A stretch of DNA of 62,585 nt, the filler included. It is 8 parts of 8 records of this genome, joined end to end, with 100 filler letters (N's around TTAATTAATTAA, not from the genome) between each part and the next. Parts side by side here need not be neighbours in the genome. Positions count along the whole stretch, not along the records: positions 1 to 12,465 come from SRR31147125_114613; 7 more parts are not named here. The stretch is one strand, 5' to 3'. A model generated the notes under the pieces. It was not told the DNA's origin. It searched no databases and saw only the letters and a list, made by a program, of their open reading frames with translations. Position numbers and translations under genes: made by a program. Shown here in pieces: positions 1 through 13,079 of this stretch (positions within the stretch are counted from its first letter, which is position 1; every line of letters starts with the position of its first letter).

Positions 1-1005
1 GGGGAGGCGCTGGCGGAGTGGCATCTGACCCAGTCCCACTTCTCCGGGGAGCCATTATCTGCAATATTCAAGGCCTTCATCGATCAGCTGTCGCGTATCG
101 TCGAGCACGCCGAATCGGCGCAGACCCGGGATGACTGGCAGATCGAGATCATGCCCCAGATGCAGCACGCGCTGCGCGACATGCTCATCAACGTTCAGCA
201 GCACCAGCGGTTGCTGGACCGGCAGCATGCCGAGATCCGGGAATTTATCCCGAAGCTGCTGACCGAGCAGAGCGAGGCGGCCATTCGCCAGTGCAGGGAC
301 AGGCTCGCGGAAGTGCTCAAGACCATACACGACCTGCAGGAGACGGTGCTCGGTTCTTCGAGCACGATAACCACCCTGATCAGCCGCATCTACGAACTCG
401 GCGAACCCCATGAGCTGCAGCGCTTCGAAATCGTCTACGACGATCTGGTGCGGAGGATCAATAGCATCAATAACTGGATAACTCAGCGTTTGACCGACTG
501 GACCGATCACTACGGGGTCGTTCACAACGTCCTTCGCACAATCGTGCGGGTCGACCGCTATAAACGGATCTCGGATGCGCTCAAGCGCAGTATCGCCCAT
601 CCTCCTTCGTGGTCGCTGTCGGTTGCGGATGAGCCGGCGTTTTACCGGATGAGAACCGACCTCGATGCCAAACGCCGGGTGCGGAGCGCACCGCGCATCA
701 AAAAGGAGGTGCACGACCGACAGCACGAGTTCGACGAGATTCTCCCCGATGAACTGCCGGATCTCCTGAAAAGCTATGCCCGTGAGGACTATGAGCGTTT
801 TGCCGAGGTTCGTGCATCGCGTGTCATCAGAAAGGCCGTACCGACGCTGCAGTCCGAGGAGATGAAAGTTGTGTCCTATGTCCCCGAATTTTATGCGTGG
901 CTCGTGAGCGTCGGCGTGATCGATGAGGACCAGCGCGGCTGGGAGGATGTGAGTGGTGCAATACAAATCGAAGATCTCAAGGTGAGAGGCGATGATCTTT
1001 CTTGA
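1..1005 (+). CDS. mukF: MukF-family kleisin (5' truncated by window start)
   Basis: Frame is open from base 1 (GEALAEWHLTQSHFS...). Segments such as QRLLDRQH..IREFIPKLL...AAIRQC..RLAEVLKTIHDLQETV and VHNVLRTIVRVDRYKRISDALKRSI...W align by eye with E. coli MukF (QRLMDEQQ..VKDDIAQLL...[47 protein letters not shown]). Stop overlaps the mukE start. Confidence 0.85.
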   Translation, partial: GEALAEWHLTQSHFSGEPLSAIFKAFIDQLSRIVEHAESAQTRDDWQIEIMPQMQHALRDMLINVQQHQRLLDRQHAEIREFIPKLLTEQSEAAIRQCRDRLAEVLKTIHDLQETVLGSSSTITTLISRIYELGEPHELQRFEIVYDDLVRRINSINNWITQRLTDWTDHYGVVHNVLRTIVRVDRYKRISDALKRSIAHPPSWSLSVADEPAFYRMRTDLDAKRRVRSAPRIKKEVHDRQHEFDEILPDELPDLLKSYAREDYERFAEVRASRVIRKAVPTLQSEEMKVVSYVPEFYAWLVSVGVIDEDQRGWEDVSGAIQIEDLKVRGDDLS

Positions 1006-1636
1006 CGAAAAGTTTGTTGATGTGGACCTCGCGCTGCGCCGGGGCGGGCATGTCAACCGGGACAATTTCACCCTGTACAACTGGGTGCAGGACAATTTCG
1101 ATGTGCTGAGCGGCTATTACACGAACTTCGGCTGCACGCTCAGGCAGCACCCGGACGGCTTCTTTTTCCTCGTTATTTCCGGACATAAACTGAAATCGCG
1201 GGTGCTGCCGATGTCCTGCGTGCACCTGGGGATTTTCCTGGCGCTCAAAGCCCGTGACCCCGAGATCACGAAAACCTCGGGCAGGATCGCCGTCGATCAG
1301 CTGCTGCAGGACATCGAGACCACCGTGCCGGCGGAAACACTGCAGAAGGTGTATGCGCCACGGGCCCGGGAGAGCCAGGTCGGGAGCCGGATTCATGATG
1401 AAATCGCAAATGGGCTCAAGATACTTGCCGATCTGAAATTTATCGAGATGCAGAACGACTCCATCAAGCCGCTGGAGTCCATCGCCCGGTTTGCGGAGTT
1501 TGCCCGGCACGACAACGAGCCGGACGAGACGGCACTGGTCCTCCTCGAAGACCGTGAAGGAGTGGTCATTGCTGCACGTGACGAGGAGGACACCGAAAAC
1601 CCTGATACCAGCGGAGAGAACCATGAAGAGGAGTAA
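992..1636 (+). CDS. mukE: MukE-family KITE subunit
   Basis: FVDVDLALRRGGHV...YYTNFGCTLRQHPDGFFFL matches MukE (FPALDSALRSGRHI...FYARYNVELIRAPEGFFYL); ESIARFA matches ESVFRFG; acidic tail ends in EEE as in MukE. Confidence 0.9.
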   Translation: MIFLDEKFVDVDLALRRGGHVNRDNFTLYNWVQDNFDVLSGYYTNFGCTLRQHPDGFFFLVISGHKLKSRVLPMSCVHLGIFLALKARDPEITKTSGRIAVDQLLQDIETTVPAETLQKVYAPRARESQVGSRIHDEIANGLKILADLKFIEMQNDSIKPLESIARFAEFARHDNEPDETALVLLEDREGVVIAARDEEDTENPDTSGENHEEE

Positions 1637-4600
1637 CGCGCACATCAAGAGGGTCGCCTACTTCGGCTGGCGCGGGATGGTCGGCTGCGAGGTCCTGGAA
1701 TTGGGAGACGGGCCGATGACCGGTCTGCTGGGGGCGTCCGGGGCTGGTAAGACGACGCTCGCGCTGTGCCTGGCCAACGCGCTGCTGCCGGATCGCCAGG
1801 TGCTCGATATCCAGCCGATTTCAGAGGTCCGGGACAACCAGTCGGCCGGAACGGACGTGCTCGCCGGGAAGATCGATCCGGAGTCGGACTACGCCTATGT
1901 CGTACTCGACATAAAATCGCGGCACAACACCCGGCTCCTGGCCGGCATCTACGCGGTCAAGGCGGACGGCAGGGCCCAGCTGACCCGCTGGCTCGTGCGC
2001 AACGCACCCGATGACTTGAACCTCAAGGACCTGCTGGCTGAAGAAGATGATGAAGGGTACGTGACGTATCCGGAATTTCCACGGCTCAAACAGATTCTCG
2101 CTGCGCGCGGGATCGATGTCGAAACCTGTCAGCTCATCGGCGATTACGGAGAGGCACTCTATGAGGCCGGTGTCCTGCCCTCCAGCATGCGAACGAGGAG
2201 TGATCGGACGCTGTATGCAAACCTGCTGAAAACAACCTTTCGGGGCGGCCTGTCCAATGAGGTCGCCTTGCGTCTCAAGGATTACCTGCTCACCGCACAG
2301 ACCCAGGTACCTGACATCGTGCGGGGGCTCCAGGAGTGTGCCGATGAGATTTTCAAGACGAGAAGCGCGATATCGGACGCCGATCGGGAATTGACGCTCC
2401 TCAAATCAACCTATGGTGCCGGCAGGGATATCGTCGCCCGGTCGATCCGCTGGATCAGTGAAGAAAAAGCGATTTTCGAGGAACAGGAAAAAGACCAGAG
2501 GGAAAGACGGGACGAATTGACCAATCGCAGTCATGAGTTGAATGGATTGGTTGCAAGCGTCACCGGTCGTATCGCGGAAACCGAACGGAGAAAGACCGAG
2601 GCGGTCGAGAGCGCATGGTCGGATCTCGAAAGGCTGAAGGAAGAGCTTGAGGGGCTCCGCGGGCAACGGGATGGTGTCAGGGAAAAGCTCGCCTCTGCGC
2701 GCACGGATAACGAGTGCTATCAAAAGGGCAAGGATATATGGTTAGCCGTGTCGAAACTGACCATCGCCGATACGTACGACGGGGCTCGGGAATGGTTCAG
2801 AAAGCATATCGGTGAGTTGCGCAAGAAAGAGTCGAGGCTGGACGGTGACATCGAACGGCTCCTCGAAGCAATCCAGCGCATCGAGCTCAACCGCCCCTCC
2901 GCCGGGTCGGAATCGCTGCAGGGCGCGCTGGGCGGGGAGACGCTCGAAAACGTGTTCGGCAGCCTGGACGAAGAGAGGGCACTGGCTGCAGACCTGTCGC
3001 TCTCCGGTGTTACCGACGGACTTGTGGGCGTGGGTCCGGATGAGCTTGACGGGATAGCGTTCTCACCTGACTTTCCGGATAATTTCTGGGTTGGCCCGGA
3101 AAAACCTGCTGTTGCGGCTGTAGAGGAGAAGGGCGACTGGCTCATCATTCCGTCACGGGGTGGGCATGTCGTCACCCGCAAAGGACGGACAACGGTGTTC
3201 GGGGCGCAGGCTAAGGCTCGGCTGCGGGATGAACACCTTGTGCAGCTGAAAAAACTGCAGGATGAAATAGCAACATACAGAAAAGAGGCAGCATACCTGA
3301 CGGACGATGAGGACGGCCTGGAGACCCTGTTCAACCGCCGTAAAGAAGAAATCCTGTTCTACCTGGACAACAGGGAACACTTCGAGGTGGCGCGGCTCCA
3401 TGAAACCCTGGAACAGGAGTTCAATGCGTTGTATGCGGAATTCAGGAAAAAGGAAAACGAGATCGGCACCGCGGAAAAAGCCTGCAGGATGACGGGCAAA
3501 CCGTTCGATGACGAGCTTTCCGCTCTGAATAGACAGCAAAGCGATGCACAGGTCGAACTCGAGAAAATCAAACTGAATCTGGCAGGGGCCCGGGAGCTTA
3601 TCGAGGAATATACCGAGCGGCTCGAATCGATTTATCAGGAGGAAGTGGAAGCACAATCCGTTCTCGGGGACGAATTTTCCGTTATCTCCGGGTATGCGGC
3701 ATCCGATCTGCTCAGTGATTTCGATGTTGACGAAGTCCTCGACGATCTTGCCGGGAAGATCGCGGATCTCAAGATGGTATTCACCGAGCTGATACCGGAG
3801 CGGTCAGATTTTTTCGACCGGCTTCGCGCCCGGAACCGGGTGCTCACCGTCTCCCTGTGGCCGGTGCTCACCGACCTGGTGCGCGAGCGGATCAACATCG
3901 ATCTGGCCGACAGCGACGGCCTGGATCTGATCCAGGACGCGCAGGATCGTCGGTCCGAGCTTGGCGACGAACTCGAGCGGCACGAACAGAATGCGCGGGT
4001 GAAGGCCCGGAGCATCGCGAACACGATCAAGACGACGATCAATTCGGCCAAGCTGCGGATCAGGAAACTGAGCCGGCTCGGACACGACATCCGCTTCGGA
4101 AATATCGTGGGTGTCCAGCTGCGGCTCGTCGAGAAAACCCAGATGATCGAGTTGCTCGACAACATAACCGGCCAGCTCGCGATGTTCTCGGCGCACAAGC
4201 CCATCGATGTGGCGATCAAGGAGTGGTTCGACAAGGGGCTTGGCGAGGAGAAGGCCCGCCATCTCTCCGGCGAGGACCTGCTTGACTATCGCAACTATGT
4301 CGACTTTGCCGTGGAGGCAAGATGGAAGGGCGGCAGCTGGGAGCCGGTAACCTCGTCGTCGCTGTCCGGCGGCGAGTCGATCGGCTGTGGTCTCGCGCTC
4401 GCACTGATGCTGATGCGCTCCATTGCCGGCAGGGGCGAGTCGAAGCCGGAGACGATAACCCCTCTTTTCGCAATGGATGAGATTCACCGCCTGGACGCTG
4501 CCGGCGTGGCGATGATCGTGAACCTCGCGCGAAGAGAGAATTTCCAGGTCGTCGTCACCGCCCAGAAAATCGAACCGAGCTATGACTGCACCCTCTACAA

Positions 4601-4676
4601 CCTGACCCGCATCCCGGATCCGGACAGGCTGGTTATCCGCGGAATCAGGATAAAGAACCAGGAAGCGGCTGCATGA
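1623..4676 (+). CDS. mukB: MukB-family SMC ATPase, short form (1017 aa)
   Basis: ATG 1623 follows GGAG and overlaps the mukE stop. Walker A GASGAGKTT; MukB-like LKTTFRGGLS...LKDYLL; MukB-type hinge (GETLENVF...FPDNFWV...VFGAQAKARL); LLDYRNY; signature SLSGGES; Walker B FAMDEIHRLD; long coiled coils. Confidence 0.9.
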   Translation: MKRSNAHIKRVAYFGWRGMVGCEVLELGDGPMTGLLGASGAGKTTLALCLANALLPDRQVLDIQPISEVRDNQSAGTDVLAGKIDPESDYAYVVLDIKSRHNTRLLAGIYAVKADGRAQLTRWLVRNAPDDLNLKDLLAEEDDEGYVTYPEFPRLKQILAARGIDVETCQLIGDYGEALYEAGVLPSSMRTRSDRTLYANLLKTTFRGGLSNEVALRLKDYLLTAQTQVPDIVRGLQECADEIFKTRSAISDADRELTLLKSTYGAGRDIVARSIRWISEEKAIFEEQEKDQRERRDELTNRSHELNGLVASVTGRIAETERRKTEAVESAWSDLERLKEELEGLRGQRDGVREKLASARTDNECYQKGKDIWLAVSKLTIADTYDGAREWFRKHIGELRKKESRLDGDIERLLEAIQRIELNRPSAGSESLQGALGGETLENVFGSLDEERALAADLSLSGVTDGLVGVGPDELDGIAFSPDFPDNFWVGPEKPAVAAVEEKGDWLIIPSRGGHVVTRKGRTTVFGAQAKARLRDEHLVQLKKLQDEIATYRKEAAYLTDDEDGLETLFNRRKEEILFYLDNREHFEVARLHETLEQEFNALYAEFRKKENEIGTAEKACRMTGKPFDDELSALNRQQSDAQVELEKIKLNLAGARELIEEYTERLESIYQEEVEAQSVLGDEFSVISGYAASDLLSDFDVDEVLDDLAGKIADLKMVFTELIPERSDFFDRLRARNRVLTVSLWPVLTDLVRERINIDLADSDGLDLIQDAQDRRSELGDELERHEQNARVKARSIANTIKTTINSAKLRIRKLSRLGHDIRFGNIVGVQLRLVEKTQMIELLDNITGQLAMFSAHKPIDVAIKEWFDKGLGEEKARHLSGEDLLDYRNYVDFAVEARWKGGSWEPVTSSSLSGGESIGCGLALALMLMRSIAGRGESKPETITPLFAMDEIHRLDAAGVAMIVNLARRENFQVVVTAQKIEPSYDCTLYNLTRIPDPDRLVIRGIRIKNQEAAA

Positions 4677-5623
4677 GCAGATTTGTGGAAGCGGCATCTC
4701 TCGCCCGGCTGATCGAAACGGGCATCATTCGGGAGTCCAAGAGAAACCTGCCGATCATCAAGCGGTTCGAGACTGCCCAGTGGCTGGAGAGATCGACAAG
4801 GAAGGCGGAGTGGCGCGTCCGCGAGGGGTGCGGAAGCCGACTTGAGCAGCGCTTGTATGAGCTCGTCCCCTCCTGGAAGGAGGAGTGCGCGTTTCTCCGG
4901 TCCCTCCACCTGAATCCATACAATCCCGATGACATCCGCAGCCTGCCGGTCCTCAAGCAGAAACGCAGTGTGCCGGGAGTGGTCAACCGGCGCAACTGGA
5001 AAGCGGCGACCGGGGCAGGCCCGAAACGCACGGCGAAACTGCAGAGCGAATCCGTCACGACTGCTGACTGGGTCATGCGTGTGCGCCCCAATCGGGGACT
5101 CTCCTGCCGTGCGGGCGGCCGCGAGATCGATCTCTACCGGGACAGCCTCATATACACGGAATGCATCATCCCCGAGCGGATGTGGCACAGGTTGGAAACG
5201 TTCACCGGAATACAACCCGCTGCCCTGGTGAGCTGCGAAAACCTCGGGGCTTACATCGACCTGCCAATCCCGCCGAACACCGCGGCAGTCTATTCTCCGG
5301 GCACGGATACCGTGGCGGTCATCGAGCTGCTGAGTAAATTTCCGGGTGTTCCGTGGGTCCACTTCGGCGACCTGGACCCCGCCGGTTTCAGGATTGCCCG
5401 GACCATTGGTGATGCCGCCCGGCGGGACCTGAAATTCTATATCCCGTCTTTTGCTGCAGACTATCTGCCGGGGGCAAGCCTCAAGAAGGGGTGGGAGGAT
5501 TTCGATGGTCCTCACCTGCCCGTCGTGGCCGAGCTGATCAAGACCCGCCGCAGGATGTTCCAGGAGGTGTTCATGCTGGATCCGCGCCTTGCAGGGGATG
5601 TGGAGGCTTTTCTGGGCCAGTAG
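4673..5623 (+). CDS. jetD: JetD/MksG-like Toprim nuclease (DUF2220-like)
   Basis: ATGA overlap with the mukB stop. Toprim motifs LVSCENLGAY (catalytic Glu), AVYSPG, HFGDLDPAGFRIA (DxD) and C-terminal FQE, typical of Wadjet JetD. Confidence 0.8.
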   Translation: MSRFVEAASLARLIETGIIRESKRNLPIIKRFETAQWLERSTRKAEWRVREGCGSRLEQRLYELVPSWKEECAFLRSLHLNPYNPDDIRSLPVLKQKRSVPGVVNRRNWKAATGAGPKRTAKLQSESVTTADWVMRVRPNRGLSCRAGGREIDLYRDSLIYTECIIPERMWHRLETFTGIQPAALVSCENLGAYIDLPIPPNTAAVYSPGTDTVAVIELLSKFPGVPWVHFGDLDPAGFRIARTIGDAARRDLKFYIPSFAADYLPGASLKKGWEDFDGPHLPVVAELIKTRRRMFQEVFMLDPRLAGDVEAFLGQ

Positions 5624-5840
5624 ACGGTGGGATTGGGGAAACTGCTTTCTTTTATTGTGCTTCCAGCTCAGGGACAGAATGATTTTCAGACAAAATGCGA
5701 AAAAATTCAGTCCCCTGGGCTTGTATTGATGTAAGGATTTGTCGGTTTGGTTTATTTTTTGCCCATCATCGCTATAACTATTCCTATGACTCTTCCGGTC
5801 AATCAAACGTGAGCCGCACAACCAATAAACGGAGGAAGTA

Positions 5841-7521
5841 ATGGAAGACATGGGTCTCTTCATGCGCCTGATCGAGCTGATGCGCCAGCAGCATGTCCTG
5901 ATGCTTTTTCTGATTCTGGGGCTTGGTTATTTGATCGGCAATATCCGCATCGGCAGTTTTTCTCTGGGGCCTGTTGCCGGTGTGTTGTTTGCGGGGCTGT
6001 TTTTTGGCTATTTCGATTTTCGGATTACCCCGGGGGCTCAGTCGGTTGGCTTCGCGCTCTTTATCTTCTCCGTGGGGTATCAGGCGGGGCCGCGGTTTTT
6101 TGATGTATTGCGCACAGACGGGCTGAAATACTTCACCCTTGCCGCGGTGATTGCGATATCGGGGTTTGCGGTGGCGGTGCTCGCGACAAAGCTGCTTTCG
6201 CTCGCTCCCGGAACCTCGGCCGGGCTGCTGGCCGGCGGGTTGACGAGTTCCCCCACGCTGGCAGCCGCCCAGGAGGCGATCAGAGCGGGCAGGTCGCCCC
6301 GCCTGCCGGAATCACTGCTGATGAAATGATCGGCAACGTCGCGACCGGCTACGCGATAACCTATATCTTCGGGCTTGCCGGGTTGATCGCTATCATCAAG
6401 TTGCTGCCGGGCATGCTCGGAATTGATTTGAGGAAAGAGTCTGCGGAGTTGGAGAGCCAGAGCGCAGACGGCGAGGCGGTCGATCGTAATTTCTCCACCC
6501 GGGCATTCAGGGTGGTTGATGAACGGGCGACCGGTTTCCAGGCGGATGGATTGAAGGAGAAATTCCTGGACAAGACGGCGGTGGTGCGGGTCGTCAGGGA
6601 AGGGAACGTGCTTTCCAGGGGGAAGCTGATCATCTGGAACTCGGTGATGAGATCTATGTGCTGGCCGGCACTCACTACTTTACCGAGGTCGTACCCGAGT
6701 TTGCAATCTATTGCGAGGAGTTCGCTCCTGCGGTGGATCTGGGGAAATTCACCGAAGGAGCCCAGATTGTCGTAATCAACAAGGGAGTGATCGGGATGTC
6801 GCCGAAAGACCTCGATATCGCCCAGTCCTATGGCGTACTGATCACCAGCGTGGTGCGGATGCGCATGGAGATGCCGCAGTCGCCGGACCTGAAAATACGC
6901 AAGGGCGATATCCTCAACGTGGTCGGTCCCGGTGACAACATCGAGCGATTGGGCGCGGAGCTCGGTCATGTCGAAAAAGAGATCGCCGAGACCGATATGG
7001 TGACCTTCTGCTTCGGGATCTGCCTCGGTGTCATCATCGGGTTGTTCGCGATCTCCGTCGGTCAGCTCTCCATTGGCCTCGGCTCGGCCGGCGGCCTGCT
7101 CGCCGCAGGGTTGACCATCGGCTACCTGCGCAGCGTGCACCCGACCTTTGGCAGGCTGCCCGATGCGGCCCGCTGGATCCTGATGGAGCTGGGTCTGCTG
7201 CTCTTCATGGCCGGGGTGGGACTCAGGGCGGGAGGAGACATCATCGAGACATTTCTCAGCGCCGGTCCTCTCCTGATCATTGCCGGGGTCATGGTGACGA
7301 CGGTTCCCATTCTGATCGGCTATTTTTTTGGTAGAAAGGTTTTGAAGATCCATCCGGTTCTGCTCTTCGGGGGGATCTGCGGTTCCATGACCAGCGGGGC
7401 CTCACTCAGTGTGGTGACAAAAGAGGCCGACAGTGCGATGCCATCCCTTGGCTATACCGGTGCCTACGCGTTTGCCAACGTGTTGCTCACGGTAGCCGGC
7501 AGCGTAATTCTTTTCTTTTAA
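5841..7521 (+). pseudogene. AspT/YidE/YbjL-family antiporter with TrkA-C domains, split by two frameshifts (probably sequencing indels)
   Basis: Three consecutive ORFs (5841, 6326, 6658) join into one transporter: GFALFIFSVGYQAGPRFF, AGGLTSSPTL, GLLLFMAGVGLRAG, GSMTSGA, GYTGAYAFANVLL. Shifts fall in G runs at about 6287-6289 and 6618-6622. Confidence 0.75.
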
Positions 7522-7537
7522 CAGTGGAGATCAGGAT

Positions 7538-7786
7538 ATGTTCATGACTGCCAACAGATTAAAGATAGAGGGCAGGCCGGTGTTGAAGCTGAATATCCAT
7601 GAGTTTGGTGAGGAAGATATCCCGTTTCTGGACAGTCTCGGAATCACCGAGGTTGATACCAGATTTGCGGACTGCAGATGTATTCACATTCACAGCCAGG
7701 AGGATTTCCTCAGCACCCGTGCTTTAATCTTCGAGAAATACGATGTGGAAGAGAAGGGGGCCCGGGCATATCTGGTGCCAAAGTAG
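7538..7786 (+). CDS. hypothetical protein (82 aa)
   Basis: ORF with upstream GGAG/AGGA, directly after the antiporter; no recognisable motif. Confidence 0.5.
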   Translation: MFMTANRLKIEGRPVLKLNIHEFGEEDIPFLDSLGITEVDTRFADCRCIHIHSQEDFLSTRALIFEKYDVEEKGARAYLVPK

Positions 7787-7789
7787 GCA

Positions 7790-8075
7790 TCGATCCCTCT
7801 TCCCTGACTTCTTGCATCCATTCATCTCCGGCACAACGACATCCGTCAGGAGAAGGTCTATCTGCGCAGGGGCGATCTTTACCGGTCGTATATTCGAACC
7901 GGGCACCCACGCGAGATCTATCTCTTCACCGATCAGTCTTCGAAGCATCTTGAGCATGCCTTCGATACTGTCGTTTAAATCGAGCACCTGAGGGGCAGTC
8001 GTCTGACGGCGCGCAAAAGCCAGTAACTGCCGGGTAATGTCTGCCGAACGTTTGCCGGCCTCCAGAATTATTTCT
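7790..8075 (-). pseudogene. Internally deleted hybrid sensor histidine kinase remnant
   Basis: RSADITRQLLAFARRQTTAPQVLDLNDSIEGMLKMLRRLIGE...AQID is joined directly to receiver-domain LLLTDVVVPEMNG; the HATPase domain is missing. Confidence 0.75.
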
Positions 8076-8095
8076 GTTTTTCCATGAACGCCAGG

Positions 8096-9376
8096 CTAAC
8101 GGTATATCAATGTGGGTAGCCACATCGAGAAGGTCGGGACAAAGGTGATGAGGGCCAACACCACCAACAGCGGAAAGAGAAATGGTAGTGTGGCGGCCGA
8201 GCAGCGCTCGAAACTGATTCCGGCGACACGGGACAGCACATAGAGAACCATGCCGACCGGCGGCGTGAGGAGGCCGATCATCAGGTTCAGGACCATAATG
8301 ACGCCGAAGTGAACCGGGTCGATGCCGACACCAACGGCGATTGGAAGCAGCACCGGCACGAGGATCGTGATGGCGGCAACCGTTTCCATAAAGCATCCGA
8401 CTACGAATAATACGAGGTTCAGCATCAGCAGGATGAGGATCGGATTATCGGTCATCCCCATGAGGATGGCGGCAAAATGCTCGGTAACCCGGTTGGTGGT
8501 GAGAATCCACGCGAAAATCGAGGCTGCCGCAACGATGAAAAGAATGATCGCCGATGTTTCAATCGTGTCCATACTGACATGGAAAAGCCGTTTCCAGGTC
8601 AGGGTCCGGTAGACGATAACCCCAAGAAAAAGGGCGTAAACACAGGCAGAAATGGCCGCTTCGGTGGGGGTGAACGCGCCGGTCAGGATGCCGCCGACGA
8701 TGATAACCGGCGTCAGCAGCGAAAGAAAGGCGCGTTTCAACGTGAGGCCCAGCAACTTGATGGAGAAGCGGTTGTCCCGAGGGTAGTTTCTCTTCTTTGC
8801 GTACCAGGCAACCAGCAGCATCAGGGCAACAGCCATGAGAACGCCGGGTATGAAGCCGGCTGTAAATAACTGGCCCACCGACGCTGAAGCCATGACCCCA
8901 TATACAACCATCGGGAGGCTCGGAGGAATAATCGGTCCGATGGTCGAGGATGCGGCGGTAACGGCAACGGCAAAATCGTCATCATAACCGGCGTCGCGCA
9001 TGGCCTTGATCTCGATTGTCCCCAGGCCGCCGGCATCTGCGACAGCAGCTCCCGACATACCGGCGAAGAGCACTGAGGCGATGATATTGACGTGACCGAG
9101 TCCACCGCGCAGCCAGCCGATGCAGGCGGTAGCGAAAGCGAAAATCCGGTTGGTAATACCGGCTGAGTTCATCAGGTTTCCGGCCAGGATGAAAAAGGGA
9201 ATGGCTAACAGCGGAAAACTATCGACCCCGTTTACCATGCGGTGGATAACCACGAAGTCCGGAACGGAACCGGACATCAGAACCCAGACCATGGAACTTC
9301 CTGCCAGGGCGATACCAACCGGTACACCGATAATCAGGAGCGAGAAGAGAACGACCAGCATTATTGCAATCAGCAT
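8096..9376 (-). CDS. dctM: TRAP transporter large permease
   Basis: SFPLLAIPFFILAGNLM, GPIIPPS, GIDPVHFG, GLLTPPVG motifs; 426 aa hydrophobic protein. Confidence 0.95.
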   Translation of the reverse strand: MLIAIMLVVLFSLLIIGVPVGIALAGSSMVWVLMSGSVPDFVVIHRMVNGVDSFPLLAIPFFILAGNLMNSAGITNRIFAFATACIGWLRGGLGHVNIIASVLFAGMSGAAVADAGGLGTIEIKAMRDAGYDDDFAVAVTAASSTIGPIIPPSLPMVVYGVMASASVGQLFTAGFIPGVLMAVALMLLVAWYAKKRNYPRDNRFSIKLLGLTLKRAFLSLLTPVIIVGGILTGAFTPTEAAISACVYALFLGVIVYRTLTWKRLFHVSMDTIETSAIILFIVAAASIFAWILTTNRVTEHFAAILMGMTDNPILILLMLNLVLFVVGCFMETVAAITILVPVLLPIAVGVGIDPVHFGVIMVLNLMIGLLTPPVGMVLYVLSRVAGISFERCSAATLPFLFPLLVVLALITFVPTFSMWLPTLIYR

Positions 9377-9426
9377 AATAAAAGGCTCGAGAAAGATTTA
9401 ATGAAAGGGCATCTGAAAATGCCGGC

Positions 9427-9993
9427 TCATTTCAGGGTGGTGTCTTCCGGTTTATGGTCCAGTGAACTGTATCCCTGTTTCCAGTGTTTGACGGCGACCT
9501 GAACGGCACGAAAGGTCATGAGCAGGAAACCGGCGAAGACCAGGCTGTAAATCCAGGCCATGGATACGTTAAGCGCGACCATGTACTGGTTCTTCATCAG
9601 TTTCAGGATCTTCCACGCGGTCCAGGAGCCGTAAGCGAAAAATATGATTCTGATCAGATCGACCAGAATTGACAGGAAGCGCCCGAGACGGCGGTTTATA
9701 AAACGGTAAAAGAATTCCACATGGATGTGGGTGTTTTTCCTGACTGCAATCGGTGCCCCGGCGAAGGCGACCGCGATGAGCAGGTAGCGGGCGATTTCTT
9801 CCGTCCAGGCAATCGAGTCGTTCAGAACATAACGGCTGAAAAACTGGACGAAAACGACTGCACCGAGAACCCAGAAGATAACGAAGGAGACATAGTCTTC
9901 GACATGGTAGTCTTTCCAGTTGACCTCGACATCTTCTATGAAGCCGCTCGAGGTGTCCAGGTCTGCTGCTTCCGGGGGATTCTGCTCAGTCAT
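9427..9993 (-). CDS. dctQ: TRAP transporter small permease
   Basis: WTEEIARY...HIHVE motif, four TM segments, lies between dctP and dctM. Confidence 0.92.
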   Translation of the reverse strand: MTEQNPPEAADLDTSSGFIEDVEVNWKDYHVEDYVSFVIFWVLGAVVFVQFFSRYVLNDSIAWTEEIARYLLIAVAFAGAPIAVRKNTHIHVEFFYRFINRRLGRFLSILVDLIRIIFFAYGSWTAWKILKLMKNQYMVALNVSMAWIYSLVFAGFLLMTFRAVQVAVKHWKQGYSSLDHKPEDTTLK

Positions 9994-10033
9994 TTTCGCC
10001 CTTGTTGGTTAACGGTTATTCTCTGATTCGACG

Positions 10034-11011
10034 CTACTGGATAGCCTGCAGGCGGTCATAGATCTCCTGACTCCAGGTCGCATCCGGACCGTTATGAAGT
10101 TTCATTGTCGCTTCACGGAACGAGGAAATATCCACTTTATTGACGGTGACTCCCTGGGACTCGAACCATGCGGCCAGAGATTTTTCGGACTCGAGGATGT
10201 CATCACTCGCCTTCTGGGCGGCATCTTTCATTACCTCGATAAAAATCTGTTTATCGGCGTCGGAGAGTTTATTCCAGAAAGGCCCGCCGATAATGGTCAG
10301 GAGGCTGTCGGAAATGTGGCCGGTCAGGTTGATGTACTTCTGCACTTCGTAGAATTTTTTGGCCTTGATGGTTGGCAGTGGGTTCTCCTGGGCGTCGACG
10401 ACACCCTGCTGCAGGGCGAGATAGACTTCGGCGAAGGCGATGGGCGTCGGGTTGGCGCCGCATGCCTTCGGGAACATCATGTACAGCGGGGCATTAGGCA
10501 CCCTTATCTTCAGTTTCTCCATATCCGCACAACTGTTCAGCGGCTTGTTGGAGGTGGCATGGCGCTGGCCGTAGTAGGTGTGGGCGACGATATGGTTGCC
10601 GGTTGCCTTGGTGTAGCCTGCGGAAAGTTCGGTAAACAGATCACTCTCAGTGTACTTGCGCCAGTGGTCCAGATCGCGGAACATGTATGGTGATCCGGCA
10701 ATGGCTAGGGGACCGAAGGACCTGCCGGCAAACAGGTTGCCGGAGATGATGATGTCGACGGTACCCAGAGTCAGTCCCTGGTTGATGTCGGCCTCTTTGC
10801 CGAGAGAAGAAGCGGGGAATACTTCCATTTCATAACGACCATCGGTCTTCTCCTTGAGAACCTCGGCGGCTTCGACCGCCCTGATATGATACGGCTCGCT
10901 CGTTTCATATACATGGGCGAACTTGACTTTGGTCGCCGCCATCGCAAAACCGGCGTTGACGATTGTCAGGACAACAGCACAGGCAAGTAACAGCATGAAA
11001 CGGTTTTTCAT
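10034..11011 (-). CDS. dctP: TRAP transporter substrate-binding protein (DctP/SiaP family)
   Basis: Signal peptide; KLKIRVP, EVYLALQQGVVDAQENP, KFYEVQKY motifs; GGAG RBS. Confidence 0.93.
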   Translation of the reverse strand: MKNRFMLLLACAVVLTIVNAGFAMAATKVKFAHVYETSEPYHIRAVEAAEVLKEKTDGRYEMEVFPASSLGKEADINQGLTLGTVDIIISGNLFAGRSFGPLAIAGSPYMFRDLDHWRKYTESDLFTELSAGYTKATGNHIVAHTYYGQRHATSNKPLNSCADMEKLKIRVPNAPLYMMFPKACGANPTPIAFAEVYLALQQGVVDAQENPLPTIKAKKFYEVQKYINLTGHISDSLLTIIGGPFWNKLSDADKQIFIEVMKDAAQKASDDILESEKSLAAWFESQGVTVNKVDISSFREATMKLHNGPDATWSQEIYDRLQAIQ

Positions 11012-11249
11012 TGTAGACTCCTCCAGATTTGTGGACTATGCCTTCCGATCCGCGGCGGTTCGAGTACGTCTCGTCACGTCAGGCCGGTCGGGTTTGCCCG
11101 TTTTAAAAGACGAATGTCTTTTTCGAGGGTGATCAATAGATAGCCTAACACCCCTGTCATGTCAATGTGTAAACTGGTTTGAGGTGTTGATAACATCACA
11201 ATATTAGTTATTTATTGAGCCCCGGGGCGGCCGCTTATAAGACCTGAAT

Positions 11250-11940
11250 TCAGCCGCGCAGTTCAGTGTATTCCTGGAGCATTACCCGAAATTCGTCCGG
11301 GTTCAAAACTGCTCCTTCTTCGCTTGTCTTGAAAAATGTTTTCGGCAATGTATCAGTGCTCCCGTCAAGACCTTCGCGGCGGTTGAATTCACGTGTCAGG
11401 CTGGTTGTTTTCCCGGCGGCCGCTGCCAGGTCTTCCGTGCTTATTTTCCTGCCTGTGGTTGCCTCCAACAGTTCCTGCAGTTCATCCCCCATGACAAAGT
11501 CCCGGAAGAACCGGCACAGGATCATGCAATCGATCAGCGCTCTGGCTTTTCCGGCAATCTGGTCGCGGTCGAATTCTCCCGATAATTCAGCTTTGTAAAA
11601 GGTCGTTCTGAGGTGACCAGATTTTCGCCGACGGGCCCGATGACCAGCGCGCCTGCGCCCTTGGGCGAGTGCTTGAGCCTGTGGGTTTCTGCCTTGTCGG
11701 TCTCGCCCCCCTTGATCGGGCCGGCATCGTTGAACTCCACCGAGTTCTCGGTAATGGCCAGCCAGGTCAGGCTGTCCCCTTTTTCTTTAATAATCAGGAA
11801 GTCGAACCCGCAACCTTTGATCTTCGGTGCCAGGGTTCCGCCACAATAGGATTCCCTGAACCCTCCGGTTGCCGGGCTCTTGGTGAAGACCCCGAAACGA
11901 GACTGTCCCCACATCCGTGTGCCGGTTGCCGGGAAAAAGT
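11250..11940 (-). pseudogene. Aldehyde:ferredoxin oxidoreductase (AOR family) remnant
   Basis: N-domain piece (SRFGVFTKSPATGGFRESYCGG...IGPVGENLV) is joined out of frame near 11614 to the C-domain piece (HLRTTFYKAELSG...DCMILCRFFRD...FNRREG...DTLP...EYTELRG). The 5' end and most of the middle are missing. Confidence 0.8.
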
Positions 11941-12422
11941 TCAGAGTATCTGAACTGACGCTGACTGATATCATTGAAATCCATCAAATCAGGGAAATGA
12001 TCGAGCTCTATGCCGTCAAAATGGTCGCCGGCAATAGAGAACAGGCATGGATTGATACGTTAAGCGGATATACCGAGTTGATGAAAGTTTCTTCAGATGC
12101 AAACGACCATGTTGCATTCTTCAGGAGTGATATGGCATTTCACATGCAGTTCATTATCTACTGCAACAACAGGACTTTTGAAACTCTCGTTGCCCAGCTC
12201 AACGAAAAAATACAGAGAATCAGGTACCTGACAACATTTGTCTATCGCCGCCTGGAAGACACGCTGGAAGAGCATGACGCCATACTGCTCGCCATAAAAA
12301 ACAGTGATCCAGATGGTGCTTCCACGGCGATGAAGTATCACCTGGATCAGGTAAAATACGGTGTTGTCAAACTCTTCGAGGACGGTACAATCAATTTCTT
12401 CGGTGGGGTGAGTGTCGGGTAA
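11925..12422 (+). pseudogene. GntR-family regulator, FCD domain only (HTH lost)
   Basis: FRVSELT..DIIEIHQIREMIE, DMAFH, EEHDAILLAI...AMKYHL are FCD motifs; upstream sequence is the antisense strand of the AOR remnant. Confidence 0.7.
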
Positions 12423-12465
12423 TCCTGCCTTCGTTCAACGCTGTCGATAGTTGCAGGTCGATTAC

Positions 12466-12566: not shown

Positions 12567-13079
12567 CTTCCCATGGTGCTGATCGGACACTCCATGGGCG
12601 GTATGATTGCAGCGCGATATGCCCAGCACCACGGCAAGGAACTGAACGCTCTGGTACTGTCCGGCCCCATGTTCGGTGCCCGGGAGGTACTCAAGCAGCT
12701 GGTGGCCATGGACCCCATACCGGAGATCCCCCTGGATCCCGGTGTCCTTTCCCGAGATCCGTCAGTGGGGGTAGCCTATGCGGAAGATCCACTGGTTTGG
12801 CATGGCCCATTTCATCGTCCAACGGTTGAGGCCATGCTTGCGACCATTGCGGCGGTGGAGGCAGGTCCCTCACTGGGCGATCTGCCCATGTTCTGGATCC
12901 ACGGCGAATCGGATATGCTGGTTCCCTTGGCCGAGACGCGGCCTGTGATTGCGCATTTACAGAGCTCCGTCTATGAGGAGAAGATCTATCCGGGCGCCAT
13001 GCACGAAGTCTTCAATGAAACCAACAAGGATGAAGTGATCGGTGACGTGATCCGTTTCTTGAAGCGCTTTGTAAAATAG
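12567..13079 (+). CDS. Alpha/beta hydrolase, lysophospholipase/monoglyceride lipase-like (5' partial)
   Basis: GHSMGG nucleophile elbow, HGESD and GAMHEVFNE catalytic motifs. Confidence 0.9.
   Translation, partial: LPMVLIGHSMGGMIAARYAQHHGKELNALVLSGPMFGAREVLKQLVAMDPIPEIPLDPGVLSRDPSVGVAYAEDPLVWHGPFHRPTVEAMLATIAAVEAGPSLGDLPMFWIHGESDMLVPLAETRPVIAHLQSSVYEEKIYPGAMHEVFNETNKDEVIGDVIRFLKRFVK

Follow-up and report, generated by a model that had tools for sequence, protein, structure and literature searches.

In its hosts, the condensin MukBEF replaces Smc-ScpAB. The descent of MukBEF from nuclease-bearing systems has already been published in outline. According to passages of two papers by Gruber and colleagues (PMC10586767; bioRxiv 10.1101/2025.03.10.642339), the origin of MukBEF is unclear, and one hypothesis is that a Wadjet defence system was domesticated into MukBEF through loss of its nuclease. 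Passages of Bürmann et al. 2025 (Cell, PMC7617805) already place MukBEF within the Wadjet group and describe a survey of 254,733 bacterial genomes of scaffold level or better, with MksB proteins of more than 890 amino acids (aa). For Wadjet types I and II, the complete extrusion of a small DNA circle triggers cutting by a Toprim dimer, as set out in parts of PMC10889018 and of bioRxiv 10.1101/2022.10.04.510915, 10.1101/2023.11.03.565488 and 10.1101/2025.03.10.642339. Here we analyse a stretch of 62,585 nucleotides (nt), referred to as the window, of which positions 1 to 12,465 come from SRR31147125_114613. Bases 1-5623 hold four co-directional open frames on the + strand, coding for a MukF-like kleisin, a MukE-like KITE subunit, a short MukB-like SMC ATPase and an MksG/JetD-like Toprim nuclease. 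With a probability of roughly 0.7, we read this operon as an accessory SMC-nuclease plasmid-restriction machine of the Wadjet (MksBEFG/JetABCD) group, lying on a branch with short arms that forms the sister group of the MukB clade.

The operon and its proteins

The genes of the operon are intact, with all frames open and every catalytic motif present (Table 1). Adjacent genes overlap by 14, 14 and 4 nt (kleisin/KITE, KITE/SMC and SMC/nuclease), and in this our open reading frame calls agree exactly with the original prediction. The SMC start was set at the ATG at 1623; the longest open reading frame opens at a TTG at 1491, and relatives align from the ATG. The window does not hold the whole operon, as the 5' end of the kleisin gene lies outside it. 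The visible kleisin is 43-53% identical to the F genes of 12 genome loci of relatives, and because the kleisins of these relatives have 436-472 aa, ~105-130 residues would be encoded upstream of base 1. The G+C content is 56-61% across the operon and similar outside it. Seven proteins of the window were found to have no exact copy in the protein collection queried.

The first three proteins had been proposed to stand nearer to MukF, MukE and MukB than to generic JetA, JetB and JetC, and Pfam, NCBIfam, PADLOC, Protein Data Bank (PDB) profiles and Foldseek agree on this. In particular, the impression proved correct because the PDB profile and Foldseek rankings favour Muk chains. When a profile of the SMC family was searched against all PDB sequences, only MukB chains matched (9gm6, full-length MukB, E 7.5e-68; 7nyw, 5.6e-67; the 3euj head, 1.2e-53; 1qhl, 8.2e-23), and the profile reached the E. 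coli MukB hinge 3ibp at E 2.9e-5 over query positions 333-602. The KITE family profile likewise matched MukE chains only, with E values of 2.9e-19 to 3.1e-15. No JetC or JetB chain scored above threshold in the PDB profile searches, and the PDB does contain JetABC entries. With the AlphaFold2 (AF2) model of the SMC protein as the Foldseek query, the top seven chains were all MukB (E 1.7e-33 to 3.6e-20), followed by the Neobacillus Wadjet-II JetC at 2.7e-17 and type I JetC at 4.5e-9 or worse.

Domain profiles give a similar picture. The kleisin matches Pfam MukF_M at 59.6 bits (cut-off 25.2), the KITE protein matches MksE (PF21980) at 74.1 bits (cut-off 27) and MukE at 49.9 bits (cut-off 25), and the SMC protein matches the MukB N-terminal domain at 93.5 bits (cut-off 23), with a weak match of 25.8 bits to SbcC_Walker_B over residues 885-968. 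The best NCBIfam matches of the three core proteins are the MukF, MukE and MukB equivalogs (those used were NF003615, NF003602 and NF003422), and all three equivalog cut-offs are missed: the kleisin scores 107 bits over profile positions 109-382 of 440 (cut-off 407), the KITE protein 43 bits (cut-off 250) and the SMC protein 245 bits (cut-off 699). For the kleisin, the low score is partly due to the protein being cut by the window edge. In the alignment, the acidic C-terminal tail of the KITE protein is seen in short-arm and long-arm types alike.

The Walker A, signature and Walker B motifs of the SMC protein are invariant across 22 aligned family members, with G37, G40, A41, G42, K43 and T45 as the invariant positions of Walker A, and the signature reads LSGGE, as in Smc. 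In the AF2 model, the N-terminal head runs to residue ~226 and is followed by a helix with one break (228-421), the globular hinge (427-527), helices at 528-733 and the C-terminal head. From this model the arm is estimated at ~195-205 residues per strand, which, taking 0.15 nm for each residue, amounts to ~29-30 nm. At 1017 aa the protein is shorter than E. coli MukB (1486 aa), and its arm is about half as long. The arm lengths given in passages of bioRxiv 10.1101/2025.03.10.642339 are 295 Å for E. coli JetC, 410 Å for Neobacillus JetC and 580 Å for MukB. Because the estimate falls at the E. coli JetC value, the protein is predicted to combine a Muk-like head and hinge with an arm of Wadjet-I length. 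Separately, when the short-family SMC profile was aligned to E. coli mukB, the arm segments ~280-423 and ~553-703 each aligned to two or three successive stretches of the E. coli MukB arm; this may hint at lengthening by internal duplication, or may reflect coiled-coil composition only.

The fourth gene is predicted to encode a Toprim protein of the MksG/JetD fold. Its AF2 model is confident (predicted local distance difference test, pLDDT, 97.0; predicted template modelling score, pTM, 0.86). Foldseek ranked MksG 8b7f first (1.7e-6), followed by the topoisomerase Topo VI-A (6.5e-6) and the P. aeruginosa JetD 7til (1.4e-5). VIA-align superposed residues 130-316 of the model on MksG 8b7f with Z 15.6 (root-mean-square deviation 2.9 Å over 163 residues), residues 97-316 on Topo VI-A with Z 15.2-15.4, and the model on JetD 7til with Z 12.8. 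Residues 1-66 gave Z 6.5-6.7 against a winged helix, a low score that is a hint only. In sequence, the family profile matched C. glutamicum MksG in the PDB (E 3.6e-5) and, weakly, Topo VI-A (E 0.076). The CEN motif aligns with MksG VENL and the GDLD motif with MksG GDLDLDG, so that the Toprim residues named in the original prediction are present in the translation. A HMMER search of 1.84 billion representatives returned 201 relatives at E<=1e-3, 148 at <=1e-10 and 31 at <=1e-30, nearly all with 313-345 aa. Invariant among 63 aligned relatives were K118, E189, N190, G210, D233, D235, P258 and E298. The Toprim domain starts at residue ~180 here and at ~265 of 407 in the PADLOC JetD1 models; because of this ~85-residue difference, the N-terminal part of the nuclease appears to be reduced.

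Complex prediction weakly suggests a contact between the KITE protein and the nuclease. The pair scored 0.49 (best control 0.01), the contacts agreed by at least 89% between runs, and the partner pLDDT was at least 82. Among 78 solved complexes, 51 attained the mark used, as did 2 among 108 mismatched pairs; scores of 0.60 or less comprise only 5 of the 78 solved complexes, yet all 4 passing mismatches (of 180).

Two sets of unusual nuclease relatives were also observed. P0143 (419 aa) carries the N-terminal domain of a serine recombinase (Resolvase) fused to a JetD-like domain, and P0238 (975 aa), P0249 (1052 aa) and P0227 (461 aa) have MukB head, hinge or Walker B parts joined to the nuclease; these four may be real fusions, frameshifts or gene-calling artefacts. 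Five metagenome loci (L069-L073, e.g. L069:6256-6753) hold a lone 165-aa protein that corresponds to the C-terminal half of the nuclease with the Toprim domain (residues 175-313, 48% identity), with no Muk-type genes nearby and with neighbours conserved across all five.

Table 1. Features of the operon and its surroundings (window positions, unless a locus name precedes them)
Feature	Position	Strand	Remarks
MukF-like kleisin gene, 5' end cut by window edge	1..1005	+	334 aa visible of ~440-460 codons
MukE-like KITE subunit gene	992..1636	+	214 aa, acidic C-terminal tail
Short MukB-like SMC ATPase gene	1623..4676	+	1017 aa; N-head, half-length arm, MukB-like hinge, C-head
Walker A GASGAGKTT, SMC residues 37-45	1731..1757	+	From translation
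Predicted hinge, SMC residues ~427-527	2901..3203	+	Model secondary structure; profile match to 3ibp
ABC signature LSGGES, SMC residues 914-919	4362..4379	+	Invariant in 22 family members
Walker B LFAMDE, SMC residues 948-953	4464..4481	+	D952 and E953 invariant in 22 family members
MksG/JetD-like Toprim nuclease gene	4673..5623	+	316 aa
Toprim glutamate motif C188-E189-N190	5234..5242	+	E189 and N190 invariant in 63 relatives
Toprim DxD motif G232-D233-L234-D235	5366..5377	+	D233 and D235 invariant in 63 relatives
Asp-Al_Ex/TrkA_C permease	5841-7521		Over three frames
AFOR N-terminal fragment	11534-11974		
FCD domain without helix-turn-helix (HTH)	11880-12419		
Hydrolase_4 C-terminal part	12573-13076		
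~96-codon gene, example	L003:4745-5047		
~96-codon gene, example	L008:4779-5072		
WYL regulator	L002:3726-4622		Upstream of operon
WYL regulator	L011:2178-3038	-	Upstream of operon
WYL regulator	L012:2850-3719	-	Upstream of operon
WYL regulator	L018:1574-2641		Upstream of operon
WYL regulator	L023:1730-2587		Upstream of operon
WYL regulator	L044:1657-2595		Upstream of operon

Relatives and phylogeny

A word-indexed protein search with the SMC protein gave 227 matches at E<=1e-3 among 8000 scored candidates. The best 120 of these 227 fall into two sizes: 21 have 1008-1018 aa and are 38-84% identical over at least 99% of the query, and the other 99 have 1439-1642 aa and align over just 22-41% of the query. 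Many of the named proteins among these 99 carry the name MukB, and Myxococcota, Deferrisomatales and Steroidobacteraceae are represented. A pattern scan of one genome per species, covering 185,579 species, located the short-arm operon at 13 loci, all of them in metagenome-assembled genomes (MAGs), with PHCS01000027.1 and JABFSI010000103.1 among the records. By record title, the 13 are labelled Rhodocyclaceae, Gallionella (2), Gallionellaceae, Sideroxydans, Nitrosomonadales, Oxalobacteraceae, Betaproteobacterium, Pseudomonadota bacterium, Thermodesulfovibrio, Methyloglobulus, Peribacteraceae and 'delta proteobacterium'. The full order F-E-B-D is kept in 11 of the 13, which answers in the affirmative whether the Toprim gene stays beside mukB homologues. 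Of the remaining two, one (L010) stops inside the SMC gene at a contig end and the other (L013) retains only fragments of the SMC and nuclease genes. At L011, also one of the 13, the SMC gene is split in two; given this split and the L013 remnant, the system can apparently be lost. Taken together, the distribution suggests a short-arm clade that is rare but conserved.

A metagenome scan seeded with the nuclease alignment yielded 61 loci, for which the gene maps were tallied by hand. Short-arm operons were seen at 24 (18 with complete SMC genes of 1004-1059 aa and 6 cut by the contig end) and long-arm operons with complete SMC genes of 1466-1527 aa at 16. At seven more the SMC gene is cut and its profile score is low, as is usual for long-type genes, 6 leave no room upstream of the nuclease gene, and 7 have room and no SMC gene (L066, L067 and L069-L073). 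A Muk-type SMC gene thus directly precedes the nuclease in 48 of the 55 loci with upstream room, though the counts are not independent events because many loci are near-duplicates. In the one locus of the 61 that is left (L039:4511-7962), the SMC region before the nuclease gene is ~3.45 kb long and holds two fragments of 420 and 281 aa; if once a single gene, this SMC would be intermediate between the short and long forms.

Most short-arm relatives carry a fifth gene. A gene of ~96 codons ends at or overlaps the kleisin start in 26 of the 29 short-arm loci with a visible upstream side (examples in Table 1), and at L011 its place is immediately after the nuclease gene. It is absent from the window's closest relative (L014), and L007 keeps a weak remnant. 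Weak Pfam matches to MarR (26.4 bits) and HTH_27 (22.9 bits) suggest that it encodes a small winged-helix (MarR-like) protein. A six-frame search at E<=10 found no such gene elsewhere in the window, the upstream side of the operon being outside it.

A nuclease of the same 313-345-aa family also follows full-length, MukB-sized genes. Eleven such long-arm loci, with an SMC of 1527 aa, come from Enterobacterales, and the proteins clustered with them are from Citrobacter, Salmonella, E. coli, E. albertii, Raoultella, Kosakonia, Tatumella, Klebsiella indica and Phytobacter, those of Citrobacter, Salmonella and Raoultella being accessory copies; among complete E. coli genomes the operon was found in 1 of 5426 (NZ_CP116100.1). 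Further long-arm relatives were seen in Myxococcales MAGs, in Massilia sp. PAMC28688, and on an 880-kb Burkholderia pyrrocinia replicon (NZ_CP091309.1), where the operon lies beside a SAVED-domain gene and an IS21 element. These long-arm relatives are already annotated in databases: members of the Enterobacterales SMC cluster are named 'chromosome partition protein MukB', and the nucleases 'Wadjet anti-phage system protein JetD domain-containing protein' or 'DUF2220 family protein'. PADLOC does not recognise the long forms, with the SMC at <=20 bits to JetC3 (coiled coil) and the nuclease at <=25 bits. As a side observation, Aeromonas caviae NZ_AP026896.1 (4.9 Mb, filed as 'plasmid') holds at 8767-9798 of locus L088 an intact 344-aa nuclease relative with a profile score of 178; a true mukB stands ~7 kb upstream of it on that strand, and its product is 56% identical to E. 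coli MukB.

Trees were built from the SMC heads. The 239 residues surrounding Walker A served as the N-head and the final 300 residues as the C-head; each was aligned on its own and trimmed at 30% gaps before the two were joined. FastTree was run on 73 sequences, and IQ-TREE (LG+G4, 1000 ultrafast bootstraps, UFBoot) on chosen sets of 34, 31 and 32 sequences, all trees being rooted on the Smc of four or three carrier genomes. Left out were 14 near-duplicates and three rows that had no Walker A anchor (L065, L076 and P0082); five MksB rows are absent from the 31-sequence tree and back in the 32-sequence tree. Type II and III JetC are absent from all trees. A search with PDLC00553 for type II Wadjet gave no matches in 151 genomes, and none in the controls either.

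The same backbone was recovered in all four head trees. JetC1 forms its own clade (UFBoot 98-99; FastTree SH-like support 0.95), as does the Pseudomonas-type MksB (UFBoot 100), whose sister group (89) is a Muk-type clade (99). The latter consists of a short-arm clade (UFBoot 99-100) and a long-arm one (89-96). Canonical MukB (UFBoot 100; that of E. coli with two or three more) is nested in the long-arm clade among nuclease-bearing lineages, and a nuclease-bearing lineage always branches earlier within it: L046 in the 34- and 31-sequence trees, and L055 in the 32-sequence tree. The internal nodes of the long-arm clade are weak (35-89). A tree-free check points the same way, as the SMC profile of the short family reaches ~220 bits with canonical MukB and has no match at E<=0.01 in five MksB proteins. 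The short-arm clade is therefore placed, in trees that hold JetC of neither type II nor type III, as the sister lineage of the whole MukB clade. On MksB itself, one genome among the Pseudomonadota sampled (G234, contigs C19 and C20) gave three separate MksE-type matches of 100.6, 81.1 and 45.8 bits, and one of the operons concerned (L094) has a 923-aa MksB followed by a 293-aa protein with a weak nuclease-profile match (30 bits).

The original prediction had suggested an evolutionary intermediate between Wadjet and MukBEF. What stands of this is a Muk-type branch with a nuclease; as a sister clade, it does not lie on the stem of MukBEF itself, because the long-arm nuclease-bearing operons are closer to canonical MukB. 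Its premise of a MukBEF lineage free of nuclease partners has been overtaken by Bürmann et al. 2025. The simplest reading of where the nuclease occurs is that the nuclease was present in the common ancestor of the short- and long-arm lineages and was lost in canonical MukBEF. A bolder proposal, tentative and with only a modest chance of being right in full, is that the five-gene short-arm form (winged-helix protein, kleisin, KITE, 1000-aa SMC and 316-aa nuclease) is a distinct, unnamed Wadjet type. It would keep the state from which the long-arm systems arose by approximately doubling the arm, with MukBEF arising from those by nuclease loss, and the winged-helix protein would serve it as an additional, dedicated subunit or regulator found in no described Wadjet type. 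If true, the short and long forms would offer a natural experiment on how arm length sets the size limit of the DNA circles that an SMC-nuclease recognises.

Function and alternative readings

The genes that define the Wadjet/Mks group, namely a kleisin gene in first position, a KITE gene, an SMC gene with ATPase motifs and an adjacent Toprim gene of the MksG/JetD fold, are all four found here. By analogy with the characterised systems, the MukF-like kleisin, a dimer of the MukE-like KITE subunit and a dimer of the 1017-aa ATPase would form a DNA-loop-extruding ring, in which the kleisin would bridge the SMC heads and bind the KITE subunits. ATP-driven loop extrusion would run to completion on small circular DNA, and the stalled complex would activate the 316-aa Toprim protein (catalytic E189 and D233/D235) to cut the DNA, which would restrict plasmids. 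We infer complex formation, loop extrusion, plasmid specificity and cleavage from this analogy. Relatives also have neighbourhoods of a defence type. WYL-domain regulators lie upstream of six short-arm operons (Pfam WYL 42-48 bits; PADLOC WYL models 49-71 bits; Table 1), and the SAVED-domain gene and IS21 element accompany the Burkholderia long-arm relative. The WYL regulator family is reported to co-localise with defence systems (PMC9122601).

The short-arm system appears to be accessory and not housekeeping. This is suggested because all 5 carrier genomes searched from the short-arm clade encode an Smc that exceeds the TIGR02168 cut-off, because the family of one carrier has the nuclease gene in just 2 of its 201 genomes (that carrier, G002, being counted; the absences are soft, as genome completeness is not reported), and because the nearest relative, L014, has 80% nucleotide identity over window bases 1-5604 only, with unrelated flanks. 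Viral contigs searched with the nuclease alignment gave 32 pattern matches and no relatives. A plasmid collection searched with the nuclease protein gave 2 records, both in long-arm or chromosomal contexts, and no short-arm operon.

The same observations bear on the alternative that the operon encodes a housekeeping or back-up chromosome condensin, like E. coli MukBEF or Pseudomonas MksBEF, with a chromosomal role for its Toprim protein such as decatenation or repair. Such a role would suit core proteins that are nearer MukFEB than any JetABC model, window neighbours that are ordinary metabolic and transport genes, and a Toprim fold that is also that of Topo VI-A (at the Z scores given above). 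However, the full Smc kept by all five carriers, the near-absence of the nuclease gene from one carrier's family and the different flanks of the two closest relatives all argue against it, as do the remnant and the split SMC gene, which show that losses can occur, and the WYL regulators and defence-type neighbours of relatives. We regard this alternative as improbable.

A highly improbable reading is that the operon is an unremarkable Wadjet system of type I, II or III whose likeness to Muk is superficial. The order of kleisin, KITE, SMC and nuclease genes and an SMC of ~1000 aa are as in type I (the JetC1 loci have 1119-1198 aa), and the modelled arm of ~29-30 nm is close to the 295 Å that passages of bioRxiv 10.1101/2025.03.10.642339 give for E. 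coli JetC. Yet among Wadjet types I-III in PADLOC-DB 2.0.0, the JetA-D model set of no single type matched. No JetA or JetB model matched the operon proteins at E<=0.01, and the full-length kleisin of L014 had no match either; no JetC3 model matched the SMC protein, and JetC2 (27 bits) and JetC1 (17 bits) matched its coiled coil only. Also against this reading, the PDB family profiles match MukB and MukE only, despite the JetABC entries, and the trees, in which type II and III JetC are not sampled, separate the short-arm clade from JetC1 (UFBoot 98-100) and from Pseudomonas-type MksB (100) and join it to the MukB clade (99). The expectation that the proteins fall near MukBEF and outside the modelled Wadjet subtypes is supported by the PADLOC misses and, as far as type I is concerned, by these trees. 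There is a very slight chance that the operon is a decaying or inactive relic with non-functional genes, as several broken-looking neighbour genes, one remnant and one split SMC gene among relatives might suggest, but all four frames are open and coupled, and the catalytic motifs are intact and invariant across relatives that are 38-84% identical.

Several points weigh against the restriction reading that we prefer. The SMC model is moderate and indicative only (pLDDT 71.5, pTM 0.40). The nuclease scores 20.8 bits against Pfam JetD_C, below the 22-bit cut-off, and at most 19 bits against the PADLOC JetD1 models; with no JetA or JetB match, JetC at <=27 bits and JetD1 at <=19 bits, PADLOC 2.0.0 would not call the system. 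The N-terminus of the nuclease is ~80-90 residues shorter than that of type I JetD, and therefore the type I mode of docking may not apply. The Smc count covers five carrier genomes, the window's own host not being among them, and no defence genes were found downstream in the window, where the neighbours are transporters and metabolic genes. In the literature, we found no experiment on the short-arm clade or on any Muk-type nuclease-bearing operon. No paper was found that describes the short-arm clade or a named fourth Wadjet type, in a search that covered Bürmann et al. 2025 without its supplementary data.

Downstream of the operon, the window holds an Asp-Al_Ex permease gene split over three frames, genes for a TRAP transporter, a PAS histidine kinase, NuoF-like and GltD-like proteins of the electron-bifurcation type and an acyl-CoA ligase, and other metabolic genes. 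The permease gene and three partial genes (an AFOR fragment, an FCD domain without HTH and a Hydrolase_4 fragment; Table 1) may owe their state to pseudogene formation or to frameshifts in the assembly. L028, a metagenome contig of 1.1 kb with 91-93% identity to the window, joins position 5648, at the end of the nuclease gene, directly to 7507; since it is without 5649-7506, the permease region is an insertion or deletion difference between close relatives. The best named relatives of the NuoF-like protein come from MAGs of Desulfuromonadaceae (79%), 'Deltaproteobacteria' and Syntrophaceae (73-76%), which fits the suggestion made in the original prediction of an anaerobic, non-enterobacterial host.

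Comparison with known systems

The interest that remains in the short-arm operon lies in its short arm, its reduced nuclease and the extra winged-helix gene of its relatives. Because the PADLOC Wadjet models fail on the operon proteins, defence finders are blind to the short-arm subclade; current finders that use these models miss the whole Muk-type group, and pipelines label its long members 'chromosome partition protein MukB'. With a Muk-like core, a kept nuclease and Wadjet-length arms, the clade offers concrete, clonable material for the hypothesis that MukBEF arose by Wadjet domestication through nuclease loss. It would also let one ask whether Muk-type motors restrict plasmids, what effect arm length has, and what the winged-helix protein does.

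Among the described systems, the Pseudomonas-type MksBEF (MksB of 923-959 aa, mostly without a nuclease gene) is, like the short-arm operon, an accessory condensin of small size with its genes in the order F-E-B, and Pfam PF21980 matches its MksE as it does the window KITE protein. It differs in the deviant Walker A of MksB (xNNxGKS) and in forming a clade of its own. Wadjet type I (JetABCD/MksBEFG of E. coli GF4-3, P. aeruginosa PA14 and Corynebacterium glutamicum) has the same four roles of kleisin, KITE, SMC and Toprim nuclease, a similar SMC length, and a Toprim domain on which that of the window superposes (MksG and JetD). In contrast, the window core proteins have no profile match to JetA, JetB or the JetC heads, JetC is separate in the trees and far below MukB in Foldseek, and JetD is longer N-terminally than the window nuclease.

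Canonical MukBEF (E. coli, Photorhabdus thracensis and Haemophilus ducreyi) gives the best match of all three core proteins, and shares with the window operon the F-E-B order and overlapping genes. It has no nuclease gene, however, ldtD following mukB in E. coli K-12, and its MukB of 1486 aa has an arm about twice that of the short-arm SMC. The equivalog cut-offs that define it are missed by the window proteins, and carriers of the short-arm system keep Smc. The long-arm nuclease-bearing operons have the same four roles in the same order as the short-arm operon, a nuclease of the same family (27-32% identity to the window nuclease), and kleisin and KITE proteins that can be aligned throughout with the short-arm ones. 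They differ in an SMC of 1466-1527 aa, compared with 1004-1059 aa in the short-arm clade, and in a signature that reads LSTGE, as in canonical MukB, where the short-arm clade has LSGGE. The winged-helix gene, present in 27 of 29 short loci, is missing from all 16 long-arm loci in which the kleisin gene can be seen.

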